64,000 nucleotides of DNA from Candidatus Omnitrophota bacterium (GCA_043823745.1 JBDRAN010000044.1:853-64852); one strand, 5' to 3'; shown: positions 30,401-59,769, counted from the first letter of the stretch. Notes: generated by a model from the sequence alone, not told the origin. Made by a program: numbers and translations.

Positions 30401-31795
30401 CTAACGGCCAACCCATTTTGTATACCAAAATACTAAAAATCTCCTTACGGCGGGAAAATTTTTTGTTTTTATATAGAGCGCCCTGATGATTGCTCCGGCA
30501 ATCTTGCTATGAAAACGCATGCCCATAATTTCCGTCGTTGCTTTATCGAGAACGTTGTAATCGATGCCTTTTATTTTCGGTTTGTTCGGAGCGGTTGTAA
30601 GATCGTTGTCGTCTTTGAGCAATGATAAACCATGCGCCACACAATACTCGTACAGATCGCTTCCCGGCATGGGCGTATAATATGAAACGCTGACAATGTC
30701 CGGCTTGATTGCCCTCACCATGTTGACAGTTTTATCGACATCTTCTTTGGTCTCGGTGGGCGCGCCTAACATGATATTTGCTACCGTTCTTACCTTGTAT
30801 TTTTTGCAGATTGCTACCGATGCGATATTTTGCTCGACGGTTGTACCTTTTTGTAAGAAATTCAGCATCTTTTGACTCCCGCTTTCGAGCCCGATAATCA
30901 CCATCGTTAAGCCTATCTCTGAAAGCATACGTATGGCATGTTCGTTTGCGCAAATCTGATCGGCGCGGGCCTGACAGAGAAAGGCAGCTGTAAAGCCTTG
31001 TTCTCGATACTTATGGCAAAACTCTTCGACCCATCCGGGGTTAGAAACAAACGAATAATCATAGAACTTAAAGCTCCTGAAATCATAACGATCCCGCAGC
31101 ATTCGTAGTTCTCCAATCACATTGTCGACGCTGCGATACCTGACACCTTTACCAAAGAGCAACCGACCGCCCGGTTGACAAAAATTGCAATTATACAAAC
31201 AACCGCGGCTTGCCAGCAGCGTTACCATCGGTGCCTTAAATATACCAGAATAATTAGGACGGTTGATTATGGTGCGATACGGATATAATTCCCGATCCTC
31301 GTATGGTAGAGAATCGAGATCCGGAGCAATCCCTCGCATAAGCCTCTCTTTTCCACGGCCCCTGCTCGCTATATCATTCAGCAAGGCAACAAAACTTATC
31401 TCTCCTTCACCGGTCACAATATAATCGATCATGCTTTGCCGCACAACATCCTCAGTCGCTATGGTTGGGTGGACACCGCCGACCACGACGATAATACGCT
31501 CATCAATAGCTTTGACGATTTCAATGGCTCGCATAACAAAACTATAATCGTAACTTCGTATGGTAAAACCTATAACATCGGGGTGGCGCACGGTGAGTGC
31601 TTCTTGGAACGCTTTCCAGCTGCGTAGCTTCCTTACGTCAATAAGGTCACAATCGCCGAATCCATCTGCCTTGGCGCACGCACTCAAAAAGCATAAACCT
31701 TCGTGGTTGATGCTGGTCCAATGTGAGCTGCCGAAGGATCCAAAACTCTTTTCTCCCAGGCCAGGGTCAACGAGCGTAATCTTTAAGTGCTTCAT
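30401..31795 (-). CDS. B12-binding-domain radical SAM protein (class B rSAM). The start is revised to the internal Met.
   Basis: CLYNCNFC is a Cx3Cx2C motif. The N-terminus MKHLKITLVDPG is typical of cobalamin-binding rSAMs. The longer ORF-track start would overlap the next gene by 154 nt. Confidence 0.75.
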   Translation of the reverse strand: MKHLKITLVDPGLGEKSFGSFGSSHWTSINHEGLCFLSACAKADGFGDCDLIDVRKLRSWKAFQEALTVRHPDVIGFTIRSYDYSFVMRAIEIVKAIDERIIVVVGGVHPTIATEDVVRQSMIDYIVTGEGEISFVALLNDIASRGRGKERLMRGIAPDLDSLPYEDRELYPYRTIINRPNYSGIFKAPMVTLLASRGCLYNCNFCQPGGRLLFGKGVRYRSVDNVIGELRMLRDRYDFRSFKFYDYSFVSNPGWVEEFCHKYREQGFTAAFLCQARADQICANEHAIRMLSEIGLTMVIIGLESGSQKMLNFLQKGTTVEQNIASVAICKKYKVRTVANIMLGAPTETKEDVDKTVNMVRAIKPDIVSVSYYTPMPGSDLYEYCVAHGLSLLKDDNDLTTAPNKPKIKGIDYNVLDKATTEIMGMRFHSKIAGAIIRALYIKTKNFPAVRRFLVFWYTKWVGR

Positions 31796-31821
31796 CGAAT
31801 ATATTCTACCACCATGGTATG

Positions 31822-32892
31822 CTACAAAGCACCCGTCGTATGGGTCTGATGGGGCTTGTTGTTTCTTCTGAATCGCCACAAGCCCGTCAAGAATCCAAGC
31901 CCGTAACTTATATGAATAATAGTGAAAACAAAAGGCAGAAAAAACAGCGTAAACGGCAAGCGGCGTGCAACCCACGCACTGAAGATTACATTAAGCACAA
32001 GGTAGGGGCACCCTACAATCAACGCTAAGAAGTTATTCCTTGTCACCAGGCCTACAAGAAAGCTTGCAAGAAGCGCGGCCACAAACAGCGGCGGCACGAT
32101 ATGCCGGAATGAGGGGATTGCATTTCGTTTTTGTATTACACGCACCTTATAAAAACCGTATTGAAAGTATTGCCTCCAGAGGCGCGCCAAGGTACTACGG
32201 CTATAGTAGCGCACCGAAAGCGCCGGGTCGAACCAAATTTTTCCTCCTGCCTGAATAAGCCGAAAATTAAATTCATCGTCCTGATTACGAACAAGCTCCT
32301 CATCAAACATGCCTATCCGCTCGAAAATTACCCGCTGGTACGTGCCCAGATATACCGTATCAACCCATCCGGGTTTGGTTGCATAACGAAAATATGCATT
32401 CCCTGCCCCGAATGGAGAACTGGTAGCCAAAGCAATGGCCTTGCCCACCGTAGTCTCGCTCACCGCGCATTGCATCCCTCCTACGCAATCTGCCCCGGTA
32501 TGTGCTAATAAATCAACACACCGGCGAATGTAGGCACTCGGGATTTCGCAGTGCCCGTCGACACGAACCATAATTGCCCCTTGGGCGTACGCCAAACCGA
32601 TATTAAGCGCTGCGGGCACGATACGAGAAGGGTTATCGAGGAGCGCGATGCGCAGGCGCATGTTGTTTTTGCTCTCGCGATCGATGATTGTTTGTACGAT
32701 TTGCCTGGTTCCATCATCAGACATCCCGTCTACAACAATAACCTCGATTTTTTCTTTCGGATAATCCTGCCGCAGAACCGCGCTGATACTGCGCTCGATA
32801 TATTGCTGTTCGTTACGAATGGGCACGATTACCGAAACACCGGGCTGAGGGGAAGAAAAACTTGACTCTCTACCTTGTGTACTATCAATCAT
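31822..32892 (-). CDS. GT2 glycosyltransferase with C-terminal TM helices (GtrB/ArnC/DPM1-like polyprenyl-phosphate glycosyltransferase).
   Basis: VSVIVPIRNE...VVDGMSDDGT GT2 core, plus two C-terminal hydrophobic helices as in ArnC/GtrB. Confidence 0.65.
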   Translation of the reverse strand: MIDSTQGRESSFSSPQPGVSVIVPIRNEQQYIERSISAVLRQDYPKEKIEVIVVDGMSDDGTRQIVQTIIDRESKNNMRLRIALLDNPSRIVPAALNIGLAYAQGAIMVRVDGHCEIPSAYIRRCVDLLAHTGADCVGGMQCAVSETTVGKAIALATSSPFGAGNAYFRYATKPGWVDTVYLGTYQRVIFERIGMFDEELVRNQDDEFNFRLIQAGGKIWFDPALSVRYYSRSTLARLWRQYFQYGFYKVRVIQKRNAIPSFRHIVPPLFVAALLASFLVGLVTRNNFLALIVGCPYLVLNVIFSAWVARRLPFTLFFLPFVFTIIHISYGLGFLTGLWRFRRNNKPHQTHTTGAL

Positions 32893-32959
32893 AGCGCCTC
32901 AGACATACCATACGGTTTCTCGGCATACAGGGCCGAATGCATCATAAACAATACTAAAG

Positions 32960-33988
32960 TTAAGGCTTACGCGCGAGCGGTTTTCCCTCACGGCAGACTT
33001 GTTCGACCAGATCACACAACGCCTGTTTTCGTGCCGCAAACGAAAAGAGTTCTTTCACTCTTTCTTGTGCCAGAGCGCCTGTCTGCGTATCATCTAAAGC
33101 CTTTATGATGGCGCGCGACAGCTCGCCTGCGTCGTCATACGGCACATAGTAACCGGCCTGACCCACCACTTCAGGAAGCGCTGATGTTGAGGTTACCACG
33201 GGCACGCACCTATGCGCCATAGCCTCAGCGAGAGAGCGCCCGAACTGTTCATGATATGATACCTGGACATATACTGTCGCCCGGGAATAAAACTGGCATA
33301 ACACTTCATTGCTCACCCGGCCGGTTATAATTACATTGTCGGTCACTGAGCCCTGCAGATACCGTGCCATTCGCTTATCAAGGTAACCAACCATAAAAAA
33401 TTTTATTTCCGGAAGCATCGCGGCAGCTTTGATAAACGTTGCCAGCCCTTTCCTTTTCAGATTATTCTCTATGATGTTACCTACGGTTAACACGCTACGC
33501 TCTTTTTTGATATTTTCTGCTCCGCCGCAAGAACACAAGGGAATGCCCTGGTATATCATAGAAATCCTATCGGAAGGAATCTTGCAATTTGTGATAATCT
33601 CTCGCTTGTTGAATTCAGAAACCGCAATAATCCTGTCTGCCAGCGTTATGATGTATCGCGTGATCGCCCTGGTTGGAAAAAACCTCAATCCCTTTCTAAA
33701 CGCTCCATAATTGATTTCAGGCGCGTTTACGCAATCCCACCCGCCGACAACTAAAATTATTTTCTTTTTAAAAAATTTTGCGAACAACAGCGGTATCAAC
33801 GCCGACCGAGACGCAAACCAGCAGAATACGGCATCAACGTTTCGTATGCTGCCTATCCCGCGGGGAATCTTAAAAAACGTATCTTTATAGAAACGTAAAT
33901 CTTCGGCGCAAAAATTATTCTTAAGTATTTCCCAATCGTTTTCTTCGAAACCGGTCCAACCTTGATGCAAAAATAAAATCTTCTTCAT
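32960..33988 (-). CDS. GT4 (GT-B fold) glycosyltransferase.
   Basis: EQFGRSLAEAMAHRCVPVVTSTSALPEVVG is an EX7E-type C-terminal motif. Confidence 0.75.
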   Translation of the reverse strand: MKKILFLHQGWTGFEENDWEILKNNFCAEDLRFYKDTFFKIPRGIGSIRNVDAVFCWFASRSALIPLLFAKFFKKKIILVVGGWDCVNAPEINYGAFRKGLRFFPTRAITRYIITLADRIIAVSEFNKREIITNCKIPSDRISMIYQGIPLCSCGGAENIKKERSVLTVGNIIENNLKRKGLATFIKAAAMLPEIKFFMVGYLDKRMARYLQGSVTDNVIITGRVSNEVLCQFYSRATVYVQVSYHEQFGRSLAEAMAHRCVPVVTSTSALPEVVGQAGYYVPYDDAGELSRAIIKALDDTQTGALAQERVKELFSFAARKQALCDLVEQVCREGKPLARKP

Positions 33989-34018: not shown

Positions 34019-35221
34019 TTATTTCAAAATGGACTTTACCGCCGCGATAACATCTTCCACGTCAGAAGCGGTAAGCTTGGCGGAAAGAGGAAGCGACAGG
34101 GTTGTATCGGAGACATATTCAGCATTGGGAAAGTCTCCTTTCTTATAGCCGAAATTGTGTTGATAATACGGGCTTAAATGAAGCGCCGTAAAATGAATAC
34201 CGGTGCCGATATTACGTTTATGCAGGCGCTGCTGCATTTCATCGCGCGATATACCCGTAACAGTTTTAGGCACCAGTATCGTGTATAAATGCCGGGCATG
34301 CACCGTATCTCCCTCAACAGGGGCAGGCAGCGTAATCGACAGGCCGGCAAACGCTACGTTGTATCGCTTCCAAATCTTCTCTCTCTTTTTTAAATAGTTC
34401 CCGATTCGTTTAAGCTGATGTATCCCCAAGGAGGCCTGAATATCCATCATATTGTATTTAAAACCCGGGTAAACGACCTGGTACTTGACATGTCCTTTGT
34501 CCGAATACCGATGCCATGCCCCCTTAGACATCCCATGCAAGCCATACATTTCGATACGCTGCGCAAACTCTCTATTATCGGTGGTTACCATTCCTCCTTC
34601 TCCGGTCACTAAATTTTTGGTGGCATAAAAACTAAAACACGTAAGGTCTCCGATAGTTCCGACTTTACGATTCTTATATACACCCTCAATGCAATGCGCG
34701 GCATCTTCAATGACATAGAGATTATATTTCCGCGCGATTGCACGTATCTGCTTCATGTCGCAGGGCCTGCCCGCAAAATGCACAGGGACAATTGCACGCA
34801 GGTGCTTATGCGTTTCTTTATTAACAGGGGAGCCTGTCTTATGGTCAATATAATAATCGCGCTCAATGCACTCATTGATTTTTTGCGGCGATAGATTAAA
34901 CGTCTGGGCATCAACATCAACAAAAACAGGCCGGGCGCCCGTATGTATGATGCTGTTGGCGGTTGCACAGAACGTCAGGGGCGTCGTGATAACTTCGTCA
35001 CCGGGGCCTATTCCAATAGCTACCATTGAGAGATGCAGGCCCGCAGTACAGGAATTAAGCGCCAGGGCGAATTTTGACCCGATGTATTCTCGAAACATTT
35101 CTTCAAAACGATGCACTTTGGGGCCTGTTGATAGCCACCCCGAACGCAACGTAGCCACCACCTCTTTGATCTCTGCTTCCTCGATGCGTGGTGCCCCAAA
35201 AAGTAAAAAATTTTTACGCAT
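34019..35221 (-). CDS. DegT/DnrJ/EryC1/StrS-family sugar aminotransferase (PglE/WbpE-like).
   Basis: FSFYATKNLVTGEGGMVTTD contains the PLP-lysine region. Length 400 aa. Confidence 0.85.
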   Translation of the reverse strand: MRKNFLLFGAPRIEEAEIKEVVATLRSGWLSTGPKVHRFEEMFREYIGSKFALALNSCTAGLHLSMVAIGIGPGDEVITTPLTFCATANSIIHTGARPVFVDVDAQTFNLSPQKINECIERDYYIDHKTGSPVNKETHKHLRAIVPVHFAGRPCDMKQIRAIARKYNLYVIEDAAHCIEGVYKNRKVGTIGDLTCFSFYATKNLVTGEGGMVTTDNREFAQRIEMYGLHGMSKGAWHRYSDKGHVKYQVVYPGFKYNMMDIQASLGIHQLKRIGNYLKKREKIWKRYNVAFAGLSITLPAPVEGDTVHARHLYTILVPKTVTGISRDEMQQRLHKRNIGTGIHFTALHLSPYYQHNFGYKKGDFPNAEYVSDTTLSLPLSAKLTASDVEDVIAAVKSILK

Positions 35222-35307: not shown

Positions 35308-36705
35308 TCAGAGACGCTCTTGGGAAGCAGGGTCATTCTCGTTAATCGCAATGACCTCCGCTTCTTCCTCAGGCAAACGCGCCAGCACAAACCCTATTGC
35401 CAGCATAAACCAAAAGGGGACGTAGACTTCCGGAAGGTTAAGATAGCTTTCGATAAAAAATGAGAAGAAAAAACCAAAGAGGCTCGCAAACACCCCTACT
35501 CGATATTCTGCTAATTCGGGATCGCGGGTGCTCCGTATGGATTTACGTAATCGATTGAGAATTTTTATATAAAAGATCATAAATAAAAGTGAGGTAAGAA
35601 TGCCATTGTCGGATGCAAATTGAATAATATCGCTATGAACAAGGCCGCTGCCGGCTAGTCCAATGCCGACAAACGGATGCTCCCTGATGAGCACTAAAGC
35701 TCCTTGCATACGCTCGCGCCGTATGTACGCGCTGGTTCCTACGGCGGATTCCGGATCAAGACCTCTGATGCGGTATTCGATAAACGGAGCAGCAAAATGG
35801 TATGCCATCAATATGAGGCCCAAAAGGATAGTCACTTCCTTCTTCCCCCGATAAAAACTATAGGCCATGAGCCCGGCTAAGACTGCAATCCATATCCCTC
35901 GATAACCCGAAAAAAATATAAATGCGATACAGGAGAGAAATGAAAAAACCATAAAGAACCGTAGAAAACTTGATTTCCTGAAGATATTAAAAAACGAGAT
36001 AATTAAAGGTAAAATCAATGCAAGATATCCGGCAAGCATCGGTCCTCCCCAAAAAGTAGCGGATGCGCGCATAGGCCCGGCTTCTCCCTCTTGCATGATC
36101 GTACCGCCGTACCAGCCTGATAAAAGCGGTATTCGTATCCCGACGTATTCAGCCATTCCCAGCAACGAGTTCAAGAATGCGGTAACAATCAGCACAAAAA
36201 ATATCTTTCTGACGATACCAATATCTTTTACCAAAGCATGTACCACATAAAAAATAGGAAAAGCGCATACTAACAAAATCCCGTATGCGATAGCAAAATT
36301 CATATTCAGGCGGTTCAAGAACGCGGTCACCAGGCCAAACAGTACGCCCAGCAGATAAAGATATCCTGAGGGAAGAAACCACCGTACAAGCGCTCCCGAT
36401 GGTCGTTTTTGAAATATCAAAAGCAATAAAAATAAATATGCGCAAAGAGCAAGGGCGGGGCTAATCCGTATAGCCTGGCCAATATAGATTGTCCGTTGCC
36501 CCAACATAAACATGGCAACACATAAGTAAAGCAGGCTCACAAACGTTTTCTCCTGGGCTTTAACAAATGAAATGAAAATAGCCATACCGATAAAAGCGAT
36601 AATCAAAAATTCTCCCTTGCTAGAAATAGAAAATGCGAAGAAAAGCAGAAGCATGCTGAGGTTGAATAGAAGAGATACCCAGTGAATCTTAATAGGCTTT
36701 TTCAT
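35308..36705 (-). CDS. O-antigen ligase family (Wzy_C domain) membrane protein, WaaL- or PglL-like.
   Basis: 465 aa with about 12 TM helices and a large loop containing conserved R/H residues typical of Wzy_C. Confidence 0.65.
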   Translation of the reverse strand: MKKPIKIHWVSLLFNLSMLLLFFAFSISSKGEFLIIAFIGMAIFISFVKAQEKTFVSLLYLCVAMFMLGQRTIYIGQAIRISPALALCAYLFLLLLIFQKRPSGALVRWFLPSGYLYLLGVLFGLVTAFLNRLNMNFAIAYGILLVCAFPIFYVVHALVKDIGIVRKIFFVLIVTAFLNSLLGMAEYVGIRIPLLSGWYGGTIMQEGEAGPMRASATFWGGPMLAGYLALILPLIISFFNIFRKSSFLRFFMVFSFLSCIAFIFFSGYRGIWIAVLAGLMAYSFYRGKKEVTILLGLILMAYHFAAPFIEYRIRGLDPESAVGTSAYIRRERMQGALVLIREHPFVGIGLAGSGLVHSDIIQFASDNGILTSLLFMIFYIKILNRLRKSIRSTRDPELAEYRVGVFASLFGFFFSFFIESYLNLPEVYVPFWFMLAIGFVLARLPEEEAEVIAINENDPASQERL

Positions 36706-36709: not shown

Positions 36710-37492
36710 TCATCCTTTTATGCATAACAAATCTTTATAGACAAGAAATTTATTCACGGCGACAAAAAGAGCCCATAACCAACCGCGCCAGCCGTCAATA
36801 AATCCTTTCTTGATGAATAATAGATATATAAAGACACTGCACGGGTATGTGAGAAGCTGATGGGGTTTTATCCTTCGGCCTTCCTGTTTACGCTGAAGAT
36901 ATTCGAGGCGCCGGTATCTGCTCAACTTTTTCCTGATTGTCTCCCAATCCTCAAAACCATAATGCAATACATGTCCCTGCAGCTGCCCGATATTTCCTTC
37001 AACCATTAACTTTTCATGTATCCACGCTCCATTGTATCGGAATTTTTTCTTAAAAAGTCTGATCCTGTTATCAGGATATAAATCGGCGCCCCGCATCCAC
37101 CGGCCCAAAATATGGTTTCGTGTCGGCGTTTTAAAAGCCTCGCACGCACTATCGCCACGGGGCATGATTGCGTTAAGTTCAGACATTAGCTCTTCCGTCA
37201 CGATTTCATCGCTATCAATTTGCAATACCCACTCATTACTGCAGTGTGCTATTGCCCAATTGCGCTGCGTTGAAGGAGATTCGTGTTTATAATAATAAAC
37301 TGCATTGGTATATTCCCGGCAGATGGCAACGGTGTTATCCGAACTAAAACTATCGCACACAACGATTTCCCGAAAGCCCTTAACGCTTGCGAGGCATCGC
37401 CTGATGATCTTCTCATTGTTACAGGTAAGTATAAGTACCGATACGTTATGCATTGCGAATATGACAAAATACGTTCTGTGACTGTGCAGCAT
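36710..37492 (-). CDS. GT2 glycosyltransferase.
   Basis: VSVLILTCNNEKII...CDSFSSDNT GT2 motifs. The true start may be the internal MHNVSV. Confidence 0.7.
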   Translation of the reverse strand: MLHSHRTYFVIFAMHNVSVLILTCNNEKIIRRCLASVKGFREIVVCDSFSSDNTVAICREYTNAVYYYKHESPSTQRNWAIAHCSNEWVLQIDSDEIVTEELMSELNAIMPRGDSACEAFKTPTRNHILGRWMRGADLYPDNRIRLFKKKFRYNGAWIHEKLMVEGNIGQLQGHVLHYGFEDWETIRKKLSRYRRLEYLQRKQEGRRIKPHQLLTYPCSVFIYLLFIKKGFIDGWRGWLWALFVAVNKFLVYKDLLCIKG

Positions 37493-38654
37493 ATTTTTCT
37501 AGAGAGAAGAACTCATTCGCCCTTCGATGCGCATTGCGCCCCATGCGTTTCATTAAGCCCTCATCGCCGATAAAAGTTTCGATGGCCGCGGCAAGCGCGC
37601 TTGGTTGCCCCGGCGGAACCACTATCCCCGAATCAACGTTGATTAATTCGCTTGTCCCCGGAACGCTGGTGGCAACGATAGCCTTCTCCATAGCCATGGC
37701 ATAAATAAGCGTCAAGGGGCAGCCTTCCGGTTCTATCGAAGAATGAACGAATATGTCAATGGCCGCCAACACGCGCGGCAAATCTTCCCGAAAACCCAAC
37801 AAGATAATATCAGTTTCCAAATGTAATTTCTTTATTTCTTCGATAATTAACTCTTTGCATCGAGAGGTTTCAAATATGGTGCCGCCGACTAAAAAAAATT
37901 TAACCCCGGGATGCCTATCCTGTATTATACGAGCGGCCCTAATAAAATCGAGCTGGCCCTTCCAATAGGTAAAACGAGCGATGTGTGCGATAACGATCTG
38001 TTTTTCAATAATACTGAATTCGCTGCGTACGGACTGACGGTCTGCTGTTTCCGGGTTAAATATATCGAGGGGTATCCCGTTGTAAACAAGGGAAATTTTC
38101 TTCCATAAAAATTTATAAAATTGTTCCCGTATCGCTCCGGAACCAACGATAACATGCTCCACGAAGAAATACACCCACATATTGACGCACCAGCGTACCA
38201 CTCCGCATGCTCTGCGTTTATCAATAATTTCCTGCATATCCCATATACACGATGCGGCAACCCCCATGCATGCCAGGCTACCATAAAAATTTGCCATAAG
38301 GCCTTTGGTGCAGACAATCATAAATTTTTCTTTGCGCAGGAAACGGTGATATCGAATCGCGGCATATATAACGGCGAGAAAATTATAGGCAAGCGCAAAC
38401 GGGTTGAACACAATATATTTTTCTCCAAATTGGAAACTCGTAGAAAAAAACCTCGGCCGGGACACGATGCAGTACGGCAGCCGAGCCTGCCTGCATTTTT
38501 CGGTCAGTTTGCCTTCACGCGGGCATATAAACGTGATGGGGAATGTGCTCCGATCGACTCTTTCTGCCAATGCCAGGCTGTTATATTCGATGCCTGCCAT
38601 CTCAGATTCTTGCATCAGGAAAGCGATAGATATCTTTTCGATTATGGTGCTCAT
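37446..38654 (-). CDS. GT4 glycosyltransferase. The start is revised to Met28, which removes a 77-nt overlap.
   Basis: C-terminal GT4 motifs are present (EGCPLTLIYAMAMEKAIVATSVPGTSELI). The ATG at 38654 abuts the stop of the upstream acetyltransferase gene. Confidence 0.7.
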   Translation of the reverse strand: MSTIIEKISIAFLMQESEMAGIEYNSLALAERVDRSTFPITFICPREGKLTEKCRQARLPYCIVSRPRFFSTSFQFGEKYIVFNPFALAYNFLAVIYAAIRYHRFLRKEKFMIVCTKGLMANFYGSLACMGVAASCIWDMQEIIDKRRACGVVRWCVNMWVYFFVEHVIVGSGAIREQFYKFLWKKISLVYNGIPLDIFNPETADRQSVRSEFSIIEKQIVIAHIARFTYWKGQLDFIRAARIIQDRHPGVKFFLVGGTIFETSRCKELIIEEIKKLHLETDIILLGFREDLPRVLAAIDIFVHSSIEPEGCPLTLIYAMAMEKAIVATSVPGTSELINVDSGIVVPPGQPSALAAAIETFIGDEGLMKRMGRNAHRRANEFFSLEKYAAQSQNVFCHIRNA

Positions 38655-38658
38655 TGGC

Positions 38659-39228
38659 TTATTGTTCAAGGCGACGCAACGGCCGTGCAGGCACCCCACC
38701 GACAACGGTATTCTCCGGAACGTCTTTATTAACAAAACTCATAGCAGCCACCAAGGATCTTTTTCCGATGGTAACCCTGCTTTTTATGATTGACCCTGCA
38801 CCTATATATGCATCGTCTTCAATAAGAAGGGGCGCCCGTGCCGGCGGCAAAACGTTGTGTATGCTGCTTTTGCCGGCGTCAAAATGGGTAAGAAGGGTTG
38901 TCCTCATGCCGATAACGACGCGATTACCGATCTTTATTTTGTCCGTAATATCTAAAAACACATCTCTTCCTACATACGCATCATCACCGATTTCCAAGTT
39001 GGCGAAATTATTTTTTGCGTTATGTATTATAAGGGGTGTATGTATCGCAACATTGTTACCGATCGTGGCGCCATATTTTCTTAACGCGGGGACGATAAGG
39101 GACGGAGGGATAAAATAAAAAAGAGCGTTAACGCCATCAAGCTTATAAATTCTATAAGCGATACACAGGAGGCCTTTAAAAAAGAAGGTCATCAAATATT
39201 TCAAGTACGACTTTTTTTCCGTATACAT
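38659..39228 (-). CDS. Hexapeptide-repeat (LbH) sugar N-acetyltransferase (PglD/WbbJ-like).
   Basis: Repeated [LIV]G-x4 hexapeptides are present (IGDDAYVGRDVFL, IGNRVVIGMRTTL). Confidence 0.75.
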   Translation of the reverse strand: MYTEKKSYLKYLMTFFFKGLLCIAYRIYKLDGVNALFYFIPPSLIVPALRKYGATIGNNVAIHTPLIIHNAKNNFANLEIGDDAYVGRDVFLDITDKIKIGNRVVIGMRTTLLTHFDAGKSSIHNVLPPARAPLLIEDDAYIGAGSIIKSRVTIGKRSLVAAMSFVNKDVPENTVVGGVPARPLRRLEQ

Positions 39229-48258: not shown

Positions 48259-48542
48259 AGCGTAGTAGGGGGAGTGTGAGTATCTTTGGTAATAATGAAA
48301 AAATAGTGCCCCGATAAGAAAAGCTTGACGGCGTTGATCCGCGCCGGGGAGCTAGCGCATAGACGACCTAAAAAATAAATAAGCTTATTAATAATCGTCT
48401 CTCGGTTTACAGTGACAAAGCGTTTACATCGAAAAAGGGAGATACCGAGTATTAAGGAAAAACAATCGATGCCGGGCCTGATTTCCTTGACGTTCAAAGA
48501 AGCGTTCTTGGCTAACACCCATAACCCATACGGCGTAATATT

Positions 48543-52201: not shown

Positions 52202-54292
52202 TCACTTCGATTCCATACTATGCGCGCCAGAAAACAGCTCGCGCCGAAGGAATAAAGACCTTTTTGTGAAAGGAACTTCTAATTTTAAAAATCCCGCCGC
52301 ATTCGGATTATCGAGAAATTCTTTGCGTTCACTGGCTTCAAATCGTATGGATTGTTTTAGAAGCCCGGTTGCCAATACCATATTTATTTCATGTTGCTTC
52401 ATAAAAGCAGTAAAAGACTCATTCGTACCGACTCCCATGAGGCTTGTATAATTATCTCCTACGTAAATATCGAATTTACCTTCTGCCGTCAGTAAATTGA
52501 CTTTATCGCGTATCCGCAGTAACTTTATAAACTCTAGTGTCTTTAGATTGCCCTGCCAGTCATGATGCATTCTTTGCGTAGTTATCTTTTTTGGCATCAA
52601 ACCAAAGGAATATCCTACGCCTGAGGGATGCTCCACAATCGGATACGGCGTGAGTAATACTATACAAAGGCCTGTCGCAAAGGCTTTGACTACCCCCGGC
52701 CGCTGCATACAAACATTTTTGTTAAAAGCATGTGAGGCGAAATACGCGATAAGAATTATTATAATCGTGAGTTGCAAAATAAGGTAATGCTCTCGGGGAT
52801 AGACTACGAACGCTGACAGCATACTAGCCGCGGAGACCAGCAGCAAAACAACACCAAGATGTTTAAGGAGAGTATAATCGATGGTTCGAACAATACGTCT
52901 TCTCGCGACTACCAAACAGATACCAAGCGCCCCCAGAAAGAGGACATAGAATAACCGCATCACGGTATCCAGCGGCCGCCAACAGGAAGGATTGGGCTTT
53001 ATTAATAGCAATTGCATCAACGTTGGAGTATACCGATATACGTTATAGAAGACATGCCGCAAAAATTCTTTCGGATTATTCAATATTGCCGTAACAACAG
53101 TATTGGCATTACCAAAGGCACTTTTTGTAATGTCTACCCAGACCTCCCACGGGTCAACCAGACTATGGTGCCGCTGAACATAATTGATACTGAAATGCTG
53201 GGCAAATGACAGCCAGCTTTTGGCAATGGTAGTATGATCGCCTGTCAAACGTATCGGTTCATACGGCTTAGACTCCCACAAGGGATTACCAAAAATAGCA
53301 ATCATCGCGACGCCGATCAAGACAAAAGAAAATATTTTACTCAGGTGCAGACACGGCTTTCCAGATATTTTCACCGATGCTCGTAAATACCAAAACAGCG
53401 CAAGCGCACCCAGAAGAAGAAGTGAAACAAAATATTCTGGCCTAACGAAAGAAACCGTTAAGATGCCCAATCCCAGTATATAGTAATAATTTTCCTTTGA
53501 TGTGGTGAAGGTGGCAAGGATAAGGAACAGGAGAAAGATCGACAACGCATAAAGGGTAACCCACGTATTATCCCATCGAAAAACTCCTGACATCAAGAAT
53601 AAGAAAGAAGCAAGGGCCGAGATGAAAGGCATGACGTGGAGCCGTCTCAGGTAAATATAGAGCAACAGCGTTGTCGAAGAAACCAAGATTTTAAAATTCA
53701 TATAATAGAGTTGCACATAATCTTTACTGAAAAAAGACAATACAAAATACCAAACCGCATACAAAGGCGCCCACTGCGCATGCGGTAGCCCCTTAATCGG
53801 CAGCTTGATGCCTCTTTGTAAATAATACGTCTCATCCCAAAGGCTGATATCCATGATCGCTTCAGCGGAGTAGGTATATTTCATTACCGCAAGCATAAGA
53901 AATAAAAAGACAATTATGTCGACGCCTAATATCTTAACCATTGAACGCCGCTCCGGTGTAACGGACACCGCAGCACCATCGATGTCTACCGGGCCCCCAT
54001 GGCAGGAGGTTTTAACGGTACGCAAGAAATAAAGAATCATACATAGAAAAAAATAGACATAAACACTTACGAAAAGCGCCTGCTGGCATATCTCATCTCC
54101 TATCGCATAGTAATGTTCCAACGAATACAGCAACTGCGCTTCAATGACCCTATTCAAGAAACCAAACGACTCGCCGTGATACATCGCGGCGATGAGTTTA
54201 TGGCCAAAGCAGAGATATAAAAACCATCCCGTCAAGAGCAACGCAAGTAACGGCGACAGAGGGAGCGCTAATTTTTTTTTATCGTTGAACAT
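52202..54292 (-). CDS. Large polytopic membrane protein of unknown function (possible GT-C-like or polymerase).
   Basis: 696 aa with more than 12 predicted TM helices and an acidic motif (DISLWDETYY) in an early loop. There is no soluble catalytic motif. Confidence 0.4.
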   Translation of the reverse strand: MFNDKKKLALPLSPLLALLLTGWFLYLCFGHKLIAAMYHGESFGFLNRVIEAQLLYSLEHYYAIGDEICQQALFVSVYVYFFLCMILYFLRTVKTSCHGGPVDIDGAAVSVTPERRSMVKILGVDIIVFLFLMLAVMKYTYSAEAIMDISLWDETYYLQRGIKLPIKGLPHAQWAPLYAVWYFVLSFFSKDYVQLYYMNFKILVSSTTLLLYIYLRRLHVMPFISALASFLFLMSGVFRWDNTWVTLYALSIFLLFLILATFTTSKENYYYILGLGILTVSFVRPEYFVSLLLLGALALFWYLRASVKISGKPCLHLSKIFSFVLIGVAMIAIFGNPLWESKPYEPIRLTGDHTTIAKSWLSFAQHFSINYVQRHHSLVDPWEVWVDITKSAFGNANTVVTAILNNPKEFLRHVFYNVYRYTPTLMQLLLIKPNPSCWRPLDTVMRLFYVLFLGALGICLVVARRRIVRTIDYTLLKHLGVVLLLVSAASMLSAFVVYPREHYLILQLTIIIILIAYFASHAFNKNVCMQRPGVVKAFATGLCIVLLTPYPIVEHPSGVGYSFGLMPKKITTQRMHHDWQGNLKTLEFIKLLRIRDKVNLLTAEGKFDIYVGDNYTSLMGVGTNESFTAFMKQHEINMVLATGLLKQSIRFEASERKEFLDNPNAAGFLKLEVPFTKRSLFLRRELFSGAHSMESK

Positions 54293-54311: not shown

Positions 54312-55439
54312 CTAGAAATTTGGATTGAAAACCTTCATCATACGTATTATTTCCCGGGAAACAATGATATTGATGAAATGCTTTAATTGTATTATCCACT
54401 TGCTACAGAATTCTTCCGTGGTCATCAATGTTCCCCCCACCATGATCATTGATGTGCCGACGGGTAAACTATCTTTCATAGAGAGAGCCTTGAGAACATG
54501 CTTCGGCAATATTTTCTCCATACAGTTTTGCTTTGTCAATCCTTTCTCGCACAATCGGAGTCTATATGATCTCTGGCATGGGCTGCACGACGTTGACGAA
54601 GTAATCGAAATAGATTTACCCTCTCTGCCTACCCAGGGATGCAGCAGAACGGGAGAAGAAGTGCCGTGTAATGAAATAATCGGCACTCCGCTGACTGCGG
54701 CAATATGCATTGCGCCGTGATCGGTGGTGATGAGCACATTGAGCTGTTGACATAAGCCGATAAATTCTTGTATCGAGGCCGTACGTTGGTATGAACAGCC
54801 CGTTAATGACACTATTTGTTCCATATTCGACCAATCACATGCTGCCCCCACGACGACAACATTTTCTTTGCCGAGTGAAGCAATAAGCGTTTGCCAGTGG
54901 CCCAGCGGCCAGCTTCTATTCTTTTTTGCCTGGAATTCAGTTTGCGCCGTATATATGCAACAACCTATTTTATTTTTATGTTCGGCGAACAAAGCGTAAG
55001 ATGGACGGGGGCAATAAAGCGCAGGGGTCTCGCCCGTATAGCCGATACGCCTGAGGAGCTCCATATTCAATTCTACCTGGTGCTTCTCAAAAAGCATATG
55101 CCGATACGCTGCAGTGACTTTTTTCTTCCAGCGTTGCGGTTCAGTCGGATACAAATGGCTCAATTCTATATAGCATTTGGCCTTTTTAGCGCATTCCTTG
55201 ACTGCGTCGGCACAGGAAAAAACCGGCATTACCGCCATATCATAGCCGGAAAGATCGAGTCCATCGGTAAATACAGCCGTGTGATCAAAAAGATTAATTC
55301 CTTCAAGCACCGGGTGATTGTTTCTTTCAGAAACTACATCGAGCGTTTCCTGAGGATACAGCCTGCGCAATGCGGCATACAACGGAGTTGCCATAATCGT
55401 ATCGCCGATCTCTTGAGGCGCAAAGGTAACAATCTTCAT
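54312..55439 (-). CDS. GT9 glycosyltransferase (LPS heptosyltransferase family).
   Basis: The N-terminus has MKIVTFAPQEIGDTIMATP. The ITTDHGAMHIAAVSGVPIISLHG motif matches the GT9 consensus D-[ST]-G-x-M-H-[IL]-A-A. Confidence 0.75.
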   Translation of the reverse strand: MKIVTFAPQEIGDTIMATPLYAALRRLYPQETLDVVSERNNHPVLEGINLFDHTAVFTDGLDLSGYDMAVMPVFSCADAVKECAKKAKCYIELSHLYPTEPQRWKKKVTAAYRHMLFEKHQVELNMELLRRIGYTGETPALYCPRPSYALFAEHKNKIGCCIYTAQTEFQAKKNRSWPLGHWQTLIASLGKENVVVVGAACDWSNMEQIVSLTGCSYQRTASIQEFIGLCQQLNVLITTDHGAMHIAAVSGVPIISLHGTSSPVLLHPWVGREGKSISITSSTSCSPCQRSYRLRLCEKGLTKQNCMEKILPKHVLKALSMKDSLPVGTSMIMVGGTLMTTEEFCSKWIIQLKHFINIIVSREIIRMMKVFNPNF

Positions 55440-55499: not shown

Positions 55500-56483
55500 T
55501 CAGAAGATTTTTTTGCTGCTGTTTTTCTCTTTCGGTGAAGCTCGGTTTTGAACGATCAGCATACGAATTTCTGTTATGGCGCGGCCTATCGCCCGTATGC
55601 TTTCCAAAAAATTGACAGCTGCCTTTTTGCCATTCACGATCGCATAGAACAATCCTTTCCCGCTATACCACAACGAACATCGCATGTCATAAAGCGCTTT
55701 TTTAAAAAGCGCGATATTGTCGGTGCATTCATTTCCAAAATCAAGATAGACCTCTGTTACGCCGTCCCAAAAAATCCGTTTAGCCAGCCATGTTAATCGT
55801 TGCCGCTCTTGCGGAACTACATGATATACTATTTGTTTTGGATTGTAATAAATCTTTGCTCCCGACGCATAAAGCCTATGGTACATATCATTGTCCTCTC
55901 CGGAAAGAAGGCATGTCCCTTTCCTGCCTAGATATGTTCTAAAGCCGCCCGTACGCAAAAAGAATTCCTTATGAAAAGCCGCATTTACCGTGATCAGATA
56001 ATCATCTGCCCCGAGATAGCAGGGCTCATTGCCAAAATCATATTTACCTACTATAGTTTCATATTCGACAGGAAATTGCTTGCGTCGGGCGCCTTCCCAG
56101 GCAAGCTCCACTTTCCCCACTACGCAGGCGGGACTAGGTTGTACGGTCGTAAAAACCTGGACAATCTGAGTAAGCCATTCCGGTCCTGGTAATGCATCAT
56201 CATCAATGTATGCGATATATTTCCCACAAGCTTCATAAGCGCCGCGATTACGGGCATAGGCGATACCTTGCTGTTTTTCGAGACAATACGTAATGGCTAC
56301 CTGTGTTTCCTTGCGTACCGTTCCTACAACATCCCGCGTCGCATCGCTTGAATTATTATCAACAACAAGAATATCGAAACAGAAATCAGCCTTTTGTGCG
56401 GCCAATTCTTTGAGCAAACGCTCAAGGAACATAGAGCGGTTATACGTACAGATAATTATAGTAGTTAAAACATCCTGTTCCAT
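55500..56483 (-). CDS. GT2 glycosyltransferase.
   Basis: LTTIIICTYNRSMFLERLLKELAAQ, with ...VVDNNSSD and DD motifs. Confidence 0.75.
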   Translation of the reverse strand: MEQDVLTTIIICTYNRSMFLERLLKELAAQKADFCFDILVVDNNSSDATRDVVGTVRKETQVAITYCLEKQQGIAYARNRGAYEACGKYIAYIDDDALPGPEWLTQIVQVFTTVQPSPACVVGKVELAWEGARRKQFPVEYETIVGKYDFGNEPCYLGADDYLITVNAAFHKEFFLRTGGFRTYLGRKGTCLLSGEDNDMYHRLYASGAKIYYNPKQIVYHVVPQERQRLTWLAKRIFWDGVTEVYLDFGNECTDNIALFKKALYDMRCSLWYSGKGLFYAIVNGKKAAVNFLESIRAIGRAITEIRMLIVQNRASPKEKNSSKKIF

Positions 56484-56666
56484 AGCAATTATGACGGTAC
56501 AGCGACGTGCCGGGTCTCGAGAACCTTTTCAATAAATTCTTTGGAACCAACCATAGATCATTCTTCTTTCTTACTAGCTTTTTTGTAGCCGACTGATTTT
56601 AAGCCGTTGCACACACCGTTCTCGATACTTCGCAGATCAGGGCGCACTACCAAGTGTTACGTGCTT

Positions 56667-58229
56667 CTAATGTATCCGTAGATATCTCGATTTCATTTTG
56701 CAAAGAATACCATCGATATACGAAAATCTGATGACTTTCCGCAGCGGTTCATACATAACAAAAAAACTCAGTATGCTTATGGCGGAATTTGCAAGCAGGG
56801 GCAACCGTTGGTTGATGAATCGATAAAACGCAATACAGGAATCGGTGACCAATGCTCTCGGCACATAACCGATTCTGAAATCATTGGCATCGCCTTCCAT
56901 TAGTAATATTATCCAATGGAACAATTTATGTGGTAGCGCTTCCTCTTTAAGAATCAAATATCCGACGGCAGAACCTGTGTGTTTGATTCGCGTGCGCACA
57001 TGAAGGCCCGCAGCATGCGCACGCTCATACAACTTTGTTCCCGGATAAAACGCCAAACTATTATGATAGAGGTAAAAAGGAGGCGGCAGCCTTTTTATCA
57101 ACTGGATGGTAGCAACAATATCTTCCTCGCGTTCAAACGGATTCATTCCGATAAAATCATAATAAATCTGTATAGTACGATATCGGGAAAGCGTTCGTGC
57201 TACCTCCAGAATTTTTCCAGTCGCTATGGGACGATCATAGATCGCACGATTGGTATGCTCGCTACCGCTCTGCACACCGACAATGACTTCACTCATCCCT
57301 GCCTCAAGAGCAAGCTTTAGCTTTTCCTCATCGAACGTCCAGGGCGAAATAAGAATAAGAAAAGGCTTATGGATTGCCGATGGGTACATGCGGACAAACT
57401 CCGCAAGTTCGTAAAAACCTTTGTCGAAAAAAGTATCGTCACTAAACCAAAAACTTTCTATTTCAGGGTAATGATTGCATATTTCCTTTAAATGATTAAT
57501 AATGTAATCGACCGAATAATGCCGGACCCGCGCGCGCCAGGGAAAACGTTCCTTAAGCGTCTGGTTCGAACAGTAGGCGCATCGATGCGGGCAGCCGCGT
57601 GAACCTTGGATAGGAAAATGTATGTACTCAGCATGCCAGGAGCCGCTTTTCTGTGCTTTCATGGGTATGAGCCGATTGTTTTCGAGGATAAACTGGTGAG
57701 ATATATCATAATCAGGAAATGGATAATCGTTAATATCTCTCTGAAGCGGACAGGCCTGATTCCTGATAATATCATTGTGTTGTTTTATCCATAAGCCCGC
57801 AACATCCTGGTATGATGCGCCGTGACATATGCGCTCTGCCAATGTTACGAGCATATCTTCGCCTTCGCCGCAACAAACCAGATCAAAAAAGTTCAGAAGA
57901 CTCTCCGGGTCTGCCGAAGCGTGAGCCCCACCGACAATGATGGGAGCCGGTAATTCTCTTTCAAGAATTTGTTTTACTTCAATCGCCTTCGCGACGCTAT
58001 GCGTCATGCATGAAATTCCTATAAGGCAGGCATCGCTACATATTTCCTTAAGATCATTCCAATGAAACCCATTATCGCCTGGCGCAAACGTCTGCATAAA
58101 CACAATCGTGCTGCTGAATCCCGCCTGAAGAAGGCACGAAGAAAGCGTCCGTACGCCGGTACCGGTGATGCATTCATCGGTACTTATGAGTACAATGCTC
58201 CGTGATTTTTTTCTCGGGTCCATATTCAA
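56667..58229 (-). CDS. B12-binding-domain radical SAM protein (class B).
   Basis: SRGCPHRCAYCSN is Cx3Cx2C. An N-terminal Rossmann-like cobalamin-binding region is present (IVLISTDECITG). Confidence 0.75.
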   Translation of the reverse strand: MNMDPRKKSRSIVLISTDECITGTGVRTLSSCLLQAGFSSTIVFMQTFAPGDNGFHWNDLKEICSDACLIGISCMTHSVAKAIEVKQILERELPAPIIVGGAHASADPESLLNFFDLVCCGEGEDMLVTLAERICHGASYQDVAGLWIKQHNDIIRNQACPLQRDINDYPFPDYDISHQFILENNRLIPMKAQKSGSWHAEYIHFPIQGSRGCPHRCAYCSNQTLKERFPWRARVRHYSVDYIINHLKEICNHYPEIESFWFSDDTFFDKGFYELAEFVRMYPSAIHKPFLILISPWTFDEEKLKLALEAGMSEVIVGVQSGSEHTNRAIYDRPIATGKILEVARTLSRYRTIQIYYDFIGMNPFEREEDIVATIQLIKRLPPPFYLYHNSLAFYPGTKLYERAHAAGLHVRTRIKHTGSAVGYLILKEEALPHKLFHWIILLMEGDANDFRIGYVPRALVTDSCIAFYRFINQRLPLLANSAISILSFFVMYEPLRKVIRFSYIDGILCKMKSRYLRIH

Positions 58230-58284
58230 AATACGTTTCCCTATGCCGCTTAAGCCCGCTCGGCAGTGCCGCGGTTGCTGTACA

Positions 58285-59769
58285 CTATCGAGGCTTCAAG
58301 AAAGCCCACGCCTTATGCCAGAGCCGCGCGACAAATTCCATGGGATTGCTCACCAGAAGTCCGATTCGCCTCTTAAAAACCTTCCTTCGATAATTTTTTT
58401 CTTTATCGCTATCAAGTTTTACCTGTATTTTTTTAATTATCTGTATCAGCGTATCGTATGCGATATTTTTCGTTAAACCCATTTTCGGTGAATGGTGGAA
58501 AAAGTTTGACCACTCACCGGTGCTGGGCAATATACCATTGCACGAAGCATAATCATATAATTCAGTACCAGGATACGGTGTCACGATACAAAAACATGAA
58601 AAATCGCTTTTGAGCTTATACATCAGCTTAGTGGTGTCATGAACCTGCTTAAGCGTTTCGTTAGGAAAACCGATCATGAAATAGGCTAATGATTCTAACT
58701 TTGCTTTTTTAACCATGGCAAAAGCTCTGCGAACCTGTTTGGGGGTAATATTCTTCTTTATGTAATTTAAGATTTCCGGGTTCCCGGATTCTACTCCGAT
58801 GTTGACCCTGAAACAACCCGCCGATTTCATGGTCTGAAGAATTTCGGGAGTGCATAAATCTGCCCGAATGTCGCACATCCATTGTATAGTTAGCTGAGCA
58901 TTCTTTATTTTCTCACAAATCTCCATTACCCTATTTTTATCGAGGATAAACGTATCGTCGGCAATCCGATACGTAGATGCTTTAAAACGTTGTGCGGTAT
59001 ATATCAGTTCGGCAAGCACGCGGTCTGCTGACATAAAACGAGTCTTTCTGCTCCATATTTTGTTGCTCGCACAATACGTACATTGGTATGGGCACCCTCG
59101 TGATGTAAAAAGTATCCCAAAGCTATCGGGAGGATGTTGCGTGCCTTGATAGGTGCAATCCCACGCGGGAAAAGGTAAACTATCAAGATCCTGTATATAT
59201 GGTCGATTCTGATTTTCCCGGATAGCGCCATTGCACTTAAATGCGATACCGGCCACATTCTCAAGGGCTGATTTTTTTTCGATAGCGTTCACCAGCTCTA
59301 AAAAAGTCAACTCACCCTCATGTTTTACCACTACATCAATCGAGGATTCTTTAAGGGTTTCCAGGGGCAAGATGGTCGGGTGAGGACCGCCGGCAACGAT
59401 AATAACCTGAGAAAATTCATTTTTGATATGATTTGTTATTTTAACGACAATCGCATACTTTGCTGTTGGCATGGTAATACCGACGATATCGGGTTTGAAG
59501 TCACCGATAATGGTTCGTATGGTATGCCATGTTTTCTTCCAGATAGGGCTGTTTTCTTCTAAGTTCGAAAGATAAAGACCGAAATTTGTGATTACATCTT
59601 GTTTGAAATGGTCTTCTGCTACCAACCCAAACTCCCCATTGTACAATATGCACTCATGTCGATTGTTTCGTAAGACTGCCGCACACGAAGCAAGGCCATA
59701 GGAAACCTTGTTATAGCTGACGTTTTGCAAAGCATACCACGGAGGATCGATTAATAAAACTCGTGCCAT
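58285..59769 (-). CDS. B12-binding-domain radical SAM protein (class B).
   Basis: The N-terminus is MARVLLIDPPW. SRGCPYQCTYCAS is Cx3Cx2C. Confidence 0.8.
   Translation of the reverse strand: MARVLLIDPPWYALQNVSYNKVSYGLASCAAVLRNNRHECILYNGEFGLVAEDHFKQDVITNFGLYLSNLEENSPIWKKTWHTIRTIIGDFKPDIVGITMPTAKYAIVVKITNHIKNEFSQVIIVAGGPHPTILPLETLKESSIDVVVKHEGELTFLELVNAIEKKSALENVAGIAFKCNGAIRENQNRPYIQDLDSLPFPAWDCTYQGTQHPPDSFGILFTSRGCPYQCTYCASNKIWSRKTRFMSADRVLAELIYTAQRFKASTYRIADDTFILDKNRVMEICEKIKNAQLTIQWMCDIRADLCTPEILQTMKSAGCFRVNIGVESGNPEILNYIKKNITPKQVRRAFAMVKKAKLESLAYFMIGFPNETLKQVHDTTKLMYKLKSDFSCFCIVTPYPGTELYDYASCNGILPSTGEWSNFFHHSPKMGLTKNIAYDTLIQIIKKIQVKLDSDKEKNYRRKVFKRRIGLLVSNPMEFVARLWHKAWAFLKPR

Follow-up and report, generated by a model that had tools for sequence, protein, structure and literature searches.

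Five radical SAM enzymes as probable tailoring enzymes of a surface-polysaccharide cluster in a Candidatus Omnitrophota bacterium

Why would a gene cluster for a cell-surface polysaccharide encode five radical S-adenosylmethionine (rSAM) enzymes? We analyzed a 64,000-nucleotide stretch of DNA from Candidatus Omnitrophota bacterium (GCA_043823745.1, JBDRAN010000044.1:853-64852), referred to here as the window, in which five rSAM genes, named A to E in order of position, lie among glycosyltransferase (GT) genes. The original prediction for this locus described five enzymes with Cx3Cx2C motifs, three of them binding cobalamin (B12), embedded in a glycosyltransferase cluster, and every part of that description was borne out. 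We conclude that the five genes probably encode tailoring enzymes of a large Wzy/Wza/Wzc-type surface-polysaccharide pathway, with C-methylation as the most likely activity of the B12 types. All coordinates are positions in the window, and genes lie on the minus strand unless stated otherwise.

The five proteins were compared with Pfam using gathering scores of 29.5 bits for Radical_SAM (PF04055), 32.1 bits for B12-binding (PF02310), and 21.5 bits for SPASM (PF13186). All five open reading frames (ORFs) were present, and each exceeded the Radical_SAM threshold (A, 60.8; B, 68.5; C, 58.7; D, 64.9; E, 89.2 bits) with Cx3Cx2C at the start of the core, placing all five in PF04055 and answering the concern that the motifs might be fortuitous. 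A, D, and E additionally carry an N-terminal Rossmann-type B12-binding domain before the rSAM core (66.7, 49.8, and 58.0 bits, respectively), which is the class B architecture. A (30401-31795, 464 aa) has a GT2 gene on one side and a class I methyltransferase gene on the other; its start at 31795 is the one given by NCBI, and the longest ORF reaches 31975. In the 464-aa form, GGVH is found at residues 106-109, GEGE at 129-132, and CLYNCNFC at 199-206. D (56667-58229, 520 aa, or 518 aa from the NCBI start) is the most divergent of the three and also matches Radical_SAM_N2 at 30.6 bits; its motifs are GGAH, GEGE, and CPHRCAYC (211-218). E (58285-59769, 494 aa) contains GGPH, EGE, and CPYQCTYC (226-233). 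The GG and GE motifs are the cobalamin-binding motifs of class B rSAMs (PMC9204698), and both are present in A, D, and E.

The remaining two proteins are built differently. B (49010-50062, 350 aa) has a Cys-rich SPASM/twitch-like domain that precedes the core: the SPASM match (40.8 bits) covers residues 45-94 and Radical_SAM residues 135-289, with CNVSCIMC at 139-146. Its family alignment conserves C45-x12-G-x4-CC...C102-x3-C106 (C45, C63, C64, C102, and C106) together with C139, C143, and C146, a pattern from which one auxiliary Fe-S cluster is predicted. C (50157-52103, 648 aa) combines Methyltransf_24 (residues 45-145), Radical_SAM (289-430, with CNLCCWHC at 295-302), and a SPASM-like tail (531-593). 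The tail scores slightly below threshold (20.3 versus 21.5 bits), and its cysteines (C531/C537...C548-550...C590xxC593) were recognized by eye. Cationic amphipathic helices were also observed at the C-termini of A (30401-30540), C (50160-50290), and E (58288-58420), with hydrophobic moments of 0.5-0.6 and net charges of +6 to +9 across the final 45 residues. Positive charge of the tail is a conserved property, seen in 29 of 30 members of the E family. These tails suggest peripheral membrane binding by A, C, and E.

Do the rSAM genes belong to the cluster in which they are found? The region from 24 to 64 kb is a single long minus-strand gene run with gaps mostly below 100 nt, and within it the rSAM genes make up 5 of about 31 cluster genes; by rough estimate, rSAMs typically account for a few percent of anaerobe genomes. 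They are interleaved with about 14 GT genes, comprising 11 GT2/GT4/GT9 members (four GT2, four GT4, and three GT9) and three GT-C-like membrane proteins, as assigned by Pfam. Because the rSAM genes occupy three separate positions between GT genes, share one strand with them, and have GC and GC3 values within the range of their neighbors, a separately inserted, unrelated rSAM operon was rejected. No transposase or integrase was detected by Pfam among the cluster genes scanned. Pairwise identity among the five rSAMs is just 25-29%, indicating that they represent five different lineages and did not arise by recent duplication.

The neighborhoods of homologues outside the window carry most of the argument. 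The E family comprises 2527 homologues at E<=1e-20 in bacteria and archaea. In all seven contexts inspected, homologues with 39-63% identity to E were located in glycan clusters, with the rSAM gene directly beside a GT gene. Two of these contexts are Omnitrophota loci (L004 and, with Wzm/Wzt, L002/L003), one is from Methanobacterium ferruginis (L005), and one is from a Chloroflexota metagenome-assembled genome (MAG) whose two B12-rSAMs alternate with methyltransferases and GT4s (L007); the remaining three are metagenome contigs (L006, L177, and L178). Two genes from the E homologue in the Omnitrophota glycan cluster L004 lies a 733-aa B12-binding::Radical_SAM::GT2 fusion (L004:12518-14719), which is a Rosetta-stone-type link, at the level of sequence, between this enzyme class and sugar transfer. 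Around the E homologue in L177, which is 47% identical, we observed genes for a Fom1-like phosphoenolpyruvate mutase::nucleotidyltransferase, a thiamine pyrophosphate-dependent decarboxylase, an Fe-dependent alcohol dehydrogenase, LicD, and a CDP-alcohol phosphatidyltransferase (L177:10615-17181). This set looks like a phosphonate-decoration module, and by analogy its B12-rSAM could act as Fom3 does.

The other families were found in similar surroundings. D-like genes are rare, with four metagenome loci found; in both contexts inspected (49-53% identity) a GT9 gene immediately precedes the D-like gene, the two overlapping by 23 nt in L090 and abutting in L091. The glycan cluster of L090 is complete and includes, in addition, an E-like rSAM gene followed by a methyltransferase gene. 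The B family gave 71 matches, typically of 315 aa with five conserved N-terminal cysteines, and all three contexts inspected were glycan clusters. One contains a B12-rSAM, sulfotransferases, a methyltransferase, a GT4, and an epimerase (L094); in another, that of cultured Methanocella paludicola, MCP_0950 lies between a UDP-glucose dehydrogenase::GT2 fusion and GT2 genes (L095); the third holds three GT2s, Wzm/Wzt, and a pyruvyl transferase (L096). The one strong homologue of A, on a short Anaerolineae contig (L053), is one gene away from an E-like gene. We also observed that a B12-rSAM gene stands beside a small class I methyltransferase gene at several loci (A with 29633-30325, L007, L090, L177, and L178), the methyltransferases being weakly similar to one another.

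The three-domain fusion in C is shared, among 5.8e9 proteins, only by its own partial copy. The family of its rSAM-SPASM half is rare: 1.84e9 proteins yielded 29 representatives at E<=1e-30. The closest homologue (P0122, 45% identity) is a standalone protein whose gene adjoins those for phosphomannomutase and mannose-1-phosphate guanylyltransferase. Upstream of P0122, a 180-aa gene was considered as half of a split pair mirroring the fusion and was rejected, being unrelated to the methyltransferase domain of C. Elsewhere, homologues of the Methyltransf_24 domain itself occur in fusions with other methyltransferase domains and with GT2, sulfotransferase, and TPR domains. Four proteins of 1431-1927 aa (P0264, P0269, P0298, and P0302) carry distant relatives of the rSAM-SPASM half at their C-termini and may be linked to the giant multi-domain proteins of Omnitrophota. 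Such giant proteins group rSAM domains with sugar-metabolism domains (preprint 10.64898/2026.06.07.730766), which we count in favor of sugar tailoring; the families of A to E were not analyzed in that work.

To place the five enzymes among characterized ones, NCBIfam models and solved structures were compared. A, D, and E matched about 25 B12-rSAM families at 80-180 bits against cut-offs of 250-750, including HpnJ, BchE, ApyD, PhpK, AprD4, a ladderane lipid enzyme, and MgmA. The scores remained outside every family of particular interest: HpnJ (TIGR03471, cut-off 577.6; E 179.6, A 130.1, D 78.6), HpnR (TIGR04367, cut-off 650; E 93.9, A 86.5, D 23.2), AprD4 (NF033070, cut-off 500; E 119.6, A 51.2, D 22.8), BchE (TIGR02026, cut-off 481; E 177.1, A 129.1, D 57.4), and the PhpK family (TIGR04479; E 138 versus 600). 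There are no chlorophyll genes near the rSAM genes. B and C matched many SPASM maturases and NF033640 (N_Twi_rSAM, cut-off 170; B 61.7, C 54.7), all far under cut-off, and the same held for StsB, PapB, and AlbA. Among models for maturases of RiPPs (peptides synthesized ribosomally and modified after translation), ApyD (NF050148) gave 182 for E versus 750, and TIGR03975 gave 98 versus 282. BlsE gave 34.5 for B versus 400. No match in the libraries searched was attributable to GenK, GenD1, Fms7, MoeK5, or Fom3, whose own sequences stood outside the comparison.

Among sequences in the PDB, the nearest to E was AprD4 (6fd2, 4.6e-31, over the rSAM core at query residues 186-426), followed by MgmA, OxsB, CysS, and TokK, and the nearest to A were MgmA-type 9ccb (1.6e-13) and AprD4 (8.7e-11). 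D had no PDB relative at E<=1e-3. The nearest to B was BlsE (1.3e-6), and the sole match to C was YydG, a weak one (1.6e-4). An AlphaFold2 (AF2) model of E (pLDDT 91.9) superposed over its full length on MgmA, OxsB, TsrM, CysS, and TokK (E-values 1e-25 to 1e-16, identity 14-21%) and on AprD4, which was among the top fold matches with a TM-score of 0.68-0.77. By sequence, the Rossmann domain of E aligned with TokK, CysS, OxsB, and MgmA and was unaligned with that of AprD4; GGPH and EGE fell on the same motifs in TokK, CysS, and MgmA. This alignment, together with the GG/GE motifs in all three proteins, favors cobalamin binding by A, D, and E. The best folds for an AF2 model of B (pLDDT 89) were BlsE, SkfB, DesII, and viperin; near-equal E-values and TM-scores of about 0.45 gave no discrimination, and the Foldseek result was therefore set aside as a guide to function. 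The closest relatives of known structure, AprD4 in the case of E and BlsE and DesII in that of B, are sugar-acting enzymes, and these comparisons thus support a sugar substrate.

How general is this arrangement? In a survey of distant relatives of E (28-39% identity, one genome per species, 80 loci), the loci spanned a very wide range of anaerobic lineages. GT2 was the commonest immediate neighbor (12 of 125), and methyltransferases, NDP-sugar epimerases/dehydratases, rSAM/SPASM proteins, GT4, polysaccharide deacetylase, DegT, and Wzx were also frequent. Between 4 and 9 rSAM genes within 20 kb were present in 10 of the 80 loci (including L018, L023, L046, and L049), so the five rSAMs described here exemplify a pattern that recurs in uncultured anaerobes. 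The claim that five such enzymes in one locus are exceptional thus holds against textbook pathways and not against other anaerobe MAGs. Tandem arrays of B12-rSAM/SPASM genes were seen in Bathyarchaeia, Omnitrophota, Elusimicrobia, and DPANN MAGs, and the genes interspersed in multi-rSAM arrays are led by GT2s and methyltransferases and include CobD/CbiB of cobalamin synthesis. Relatives of E were observed on predicted viral contigs as well: at least 499 stretches of such contigs in IMG/VR encode B12-rSAMs with 24-33% identity to E, and 40 of the 80 viral loci fetched (L097-L176) also contain glycan-type genes. A compact viral module recurs, consisting of DegT or GT2, a B12-rSAM, an NDP-sugar 4,6-dehydratase, and a nucleotidyltransferase (for example L131:6217-11596, L142, L128, L139, L159, and L122).

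From these data a mechanism can be proposed. In A, D, and E, SAM would be cleaved reductively at the [4Fe-4S] cluster bound by Cx3Cx2C, while cobalamin would be held by the Rossmann domain through its GG/GE motifs, leading to modification of an unactivated sugar carbon. By analogy with GenK, GenD1, Fms7, and MoeK5, the most likely reaction would be C-methylation; deoxygenation or ring rearrangement, as with AprD4, OxsB, and HpnJ, would be less likely. These three enzymes may act on a nucleotide sugar or on an undecaprenyl-diphosphate-linked oligosaccharide at the cytoplasmic face of the membrane. The former is suggested because the viral modules pair B12-rSAMs with a nucleotidyltransferase, a 4,6-dehydratase, and an aminotransferase; the latter would fit the amphipathic tails, the GT9-D gene pair, and the GT2 fusion. 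In B and C, a 5'-deoxyadenosyl radical and an auxiliary Fe-S cluster may bring about a redox-type sugar conversion, with oxidation, epimerization, decarboxylation, and dehydration as candidates, and in C the radical step may be coupled with conventional methyl transfer. Given that four to five class I methyltransferase domains are also encoded in the cluster, the resulting glycan would be chemically unusual and rich in methyl groups.

Several points weigh against sugar tailoring by the five enzymes. None of them reached the cut-off of any NCBIfam family, and no reaction can therefore be transferred by homology. It is gene neighborhood alone that assigns them to sugar tailoring, their chemistry and substrate being predicted. 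Cobalamin use is unproven: AprD4, the best PDB sequence match of E, has the same fold and is reportedly cobalamin-free. The window holds no cobalamin genes, and a search of the 64 kb with Rfam returned no cobalamin riboswitch or other RNA. The argument from the amphipathic tails is indirect. The A homologue on the Anaerolineae contig adjoins genes for a sortase and an LppX/LprG-type lipoprotein, and the sequence of the window itself comes from a MAG contig; in an older, fragmentary assembly, the order GT9-E-D-GT2 is identical. Finally, around the distant relatives of E, glycan genes made up 8-10% of genes within 5 kb versus 3% beyond 8 kb (Fisher p ~0.07-0.1), as counted with a low-sensitivity glycan-gene detector. 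Among these relatives the association is a weak, non-significant trend, and it holds for closer relatives, on which the argument was consequently rested. The co-occurrence with GT genes foreseen in the original prediction was thus confirmed for relatives of B, D, and E in glycan clusters of other phyla, and amounts to a trend at 28-39% identity.

The B12 types might instead modify a lipid or glycolipid by methylating or rearranging the polyprenyl carrier, lipid-A-like acyl chains, or the head group of a membrane glycolipid. HpnJ, HpnR, and HpnP acting on hopanoids, together with other B12-rSAM lipid enzymes, provide precedents; HpnJ (179.6 bits for E), HpnR, and the ladderane-type lipid B12-rSAM TIGR04072 are among the best NCBIfam matches; and published work on Omnitrophota rSAMs is mostly about lipid enzymes. 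GT9 and ArnT-like PMT_2 proteins are typical of the decoration of lipid A and of the lipopolysaccharide (LPS) core, the cluster borders on a gene of the geranylgeranyl-reductase family, and the cationic amphipathic tails suggest action at the membrane surface. However, all of these family scores are far under cut-off, homologues have GTs, NDP-sugar enzymes, and methyltransferases rather than lipid-synthesis genes as neighbors, and the B12-rSAM::GT2 fusion points to a sugar-transfer step. The two explanations also overlap, because with a glycolipid head group the substrate would again be a sugar. On balance we consider lipid modification unlikely.

Two further explanations seem less probable still. 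If the rSAM genes were passengers in a hypervariable cassette, with unrelated functions or none, their number would carry no meaning for the pathway. Omnitrophota polysaccharide cassettes have been reported to be hypervariable and rich in mobile cargo (preprint 10.64898/2026.06.07.730766), one methyltransferase gene of the cluster is interrupted by an in-frame stop, arrays of rSAM paralogues are frequent in MAGs of this kind, and glycan enrichment around distant relatives is weak. In contrast, all five ORFs are unbroken and retain their full catalytic motifs, three independent families (B, D, and E) repeat the glycan association in other phyla, fusions with GT2 and with a glycan-type methyltransferase domain exist, and neither a compositional break nor a transposase or integrase was found among the genes scanned; we regard the passenger explanation as very unlikely. 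The original prediction also allowed for a still-unseen peptide substrate, and maturation of a peptide, a glycoprotein acceptor, or a cofactor site would concern B and C in particular. SPASM/twitch rSAMs are best known for peptide maturation, the weak NCBIfam matches include sactipeptide, ranthipeptide, and tungsten-enzyme maturases and ApyD, and the only PDB sequence match of C is YydG. The PMT_2 and GT9 families, moreover, include protein glycosyltransferases. A scan of the short gaps between cluster genes and of all small ORFs at 46.8-50.2 kb nevertheless yielded no plausible RiPP precursor, the small ORFs not being rich in Cys, Gly, or Thr, and Pfam detected no RiPP recognition element (RRE/PqqD), protease, or peptide ABC exporter across 24-64 kb. 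RiPP-family scores are all 3-8 fold under cut-off, B-family contexts elsewhere are glycan clusters, and the best fold and sequence matches of B include the sugar enzymes BlsE and DesII. The peptide proposal was accordingly not upheld and appears the least probable of all. Tailoring of a surface polysaccharide therefore remains our preferred explanation.

The surrounding genes describe the polymer to which the rSAM enzymes would contribute. The window contains a glycan cluster of at least 37 kb, of the Wzy/Wza/Wzc type and primed by a phosphoglycosyl transferase, in an anaerobic Candidatus Omnitrophota. At its low-coordinate end, both Pfam and NCBIfam recognized a PglF/CapD-like membrane UDP-N-acetylhexosamine 4,6-dehydratase (26975-28867), a small phosphoglycosyl transferase (Bac_transf, 28860-29444), and the class I methyltransferase that adjoins A (29633-30325). 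Beyond A follow a GT2 (31822-32892), a GT4 (32960-33988), a DegT aminotransferase (34019-35221, Pfam and NCBIfam), a Wzy_C protein (35308-36705), a second GT2 (36710-37492), a second GT4 (37446-38735), a WcaF-like hexapeptide acetyltransferase (38659-39228, Pfam and NCBIfam), and a third GT4 (39241-40449); genes given here without a source were assigned by Pfam. A complete PglFED-type set for di-N-acetylbacillosamine was considered and the assignment softened, the acetyltransferase being WcaF-like rather than PglD/NeuD-like and the dehydratase and aminotransferase scoring below the PseB/PseC cut-offs. Next come two tandem GT-C-like PMT_2 paralogues (40456-42006 and 42194-43747), their paralogy being judged from the sequences. 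These ArnT-like proteins have nine transmembrane segments each and near-identical C-termini, and a Pfam score was obtained for the first only (40456-42006). They are followed by an FAD oxidoreductase related to UDP-galactopyranose mutase (43805-45250, Pfam and NCBIfam), a PIG-L deacetylase::methyltransferase fusion (45357-46892), and a fourth GT4 (47065-48258).

The PIG-L fusion and two class I genes, one of them interrupted, supply the non-rSAM methyltransferases of the cluster. The interrupted gene (48255-48974) is directly downstream of B in transcription order and has an in-frame TGA at 48543-48545; Methyltransf_11 covers the first 143 aa, and methyltransferase-like sequence resumes in frame past the TGA. 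Since TGA is an ordinary stop in 12 of 42 genes here, genome-wide recoding is unlikely, and the gene is either a pseudogene or affected by a sequencing error, selenocysteine being less likely. The gene directly upstream of C in transcription order (52202-54292) encodes a membrane protein of 696 aa, in which a hydropathy scan revealed about 11 hydrophobic segments and for which neither Pfam nor NCBIfam gave a match. The high-coordinate part of the cluster consists, apart from D and E, of GT9 (Glyco_transf_9) genes at 54312-55439, 59850-61091, and 62264-63505 and GT2 (Glycos_transf_2) genes at 55500-56483 and 61118-62164. The GT9 proteins belong to the Pfam family, whereas their best scores of 71.9-83.5 bits lie well below the NCBIfam cut-offs for LPS heptosyltransferases (134.6-185.3 bits); they were therefore rejected as canonical LPS-core WaaC/F/Q.

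An export module lies at lower coordinates and was assigned by Pfam: a second Wzy_C protein (15147-16445), a Wzc-like protein (Wzz/GNVR/AAA_31, 16445-18274), Wza (Poly_export/SLBB, 18349-19731), and an outer-membrane beta-barrel (19731-21074), with TPR proteins also on the minus strand around it. Genes for two PilZ-domain proteins and for a HAMP-GGDEF diguanylate cyclase lie on either side of this module (5433-7466, 21130-21711, and 24348-25661), suggesting that the polysaccharide is probably under cyclic di-GMP control. Adjoining the PglF-like gene is a geranylgeranyl-reductase-family flavoprotein gene (25695-26810; TIGR02032, 174.6 versus 158.8 bits), whose product might saturate a polyprenyl carrier or lipid. 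At the contig edge, positions 1-3100 carry plus-strand ORFs, one encoding a DUF6794 protein, and the first ~2 kb have a GC content of 0.335 versus 0.42-0.49 elsewhere; this DNA may be foreign or mobile.

Is such a pathway already known? A full-text literature search retrieved no paper in which cobalamin-type rSAMs are connected with the synthesis of cell-surface polysaccharides; matches in Arcobacter and Geobacter papers were discarded as irrelevant. Polysaccharides are unmentioned in two recent reviews of cobalamin-dependent rSAMs, one of them PMC9204698. The expectation of an undescribed pathway was met in part: no characterized family claims the five enzymes and no matching literature was found, but rSAM tailoring of sugars is already known from a few antibiotic pathways, namely those of gentamicin, apramycin, moenomycin, and blasticidin. 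What would be new, as far as sequence allows us to infer, is the use of this chemistry in cell-surface glycan assembly, through uncharacterized families and a unique fusion.

If this is true, the surface glycans of many anaerobes, a large and mostly uncultured share of the microbial world, hold sugar structures beyond standard pathway prediction, in groups such as Omnitrophota, Chloroflexota, Bathyarchaeia, DPANN archaea, and methanogens, and may depend on cobalamin supply. Part of the large unknown-function space of class B rSAMs would also be explained. The enzymes are compact targets for enzymology, and two of the families occur in cultured archaea, in Methanocella paludicola (B, MCP_0950) and Methanobacterium ferruginis (E). 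A broader proposal, which we put forward tentatively and would rate at somewhat below even, is that rSAM chemistry forms a widespread, undescribed layer of surface-glycan biosynthesis in anaerobic bacteria, archaea, and their viruses. The A/D/E, B, and C families would install non-classical modifications (C-methyl branches, radical deoxygenations, epimerizations, and ring rearrangements) in capsule, exopolysaccharide, LPS, and S-layer-type polymers, and C would be a new bifunctional or radical methylating enzyme.

Comparison with known systems shows where these enzymes resemble and depart from their relatives. BlsE, DesII, and BtrN-type enzymes, like B, have a small rSAM core and act on sugars or nucleotide sugars; B carries a twitch-type auxiliary-cluster motif, and its Cys-rich domain is N-terminal, whereas theirs is C-terminal. 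In NF033640, to our knowledge a family of uncharacterized function, the twitch domain precedes the rSAM core as it does in B; this model is the second-best NCBIfam match of B and the third-best of C. MgmA/QCMT (9ccb), TokK, CysS, TsrM, and OxsB have GGxH and (G)EGE motifs in common with E. Their substrates, however, are proteins, carbapenems, tryptophan, and nucleosides, and none of these enzymes is encoded in a glycan cluster. AprD4, the rSAM 1,2-diol dehydratase of apramycin synthesis, acts on an aminoglycoside sugar, although its sequence match with E excludes the Rossmann domain. HpnJ, together with the GT2 HpnI, remodels the glucosamine head group of hopanoids and so offers a case of a GT2 and a B12-rSAM working on a membrane-bound amino sugar. 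It is among the top NCBIfam matches of A, D, and E, yet at 79-180 bits versus 577.6, and no hpnH or shc gene is present in the window. HpnJ, Fom3, and MoeK5 fall into one similarity cluster, and GenK, GenD1, Fms7, and MoeK5 are single-methylation class B enzymes (PMC9204698). The latter four, from the aminoglycoside (GenK, GenD1, and Fms7) and moenomycin (MoeK5) pathways, belong to actinomycete secondary metabolism, whereas A, D, and E, for which methylation is predicted, belong to the Wzy/Wza/Wzc-type surface cluster of an anaerobe. Like A, D, and E, they combine a Rossmann cobalamin domain carrying GG/GE with an rSAM core, and they work in pathways built by glycosyltransferases, as here, the substrate of MoeK5 being a lipid-linked saccharide.

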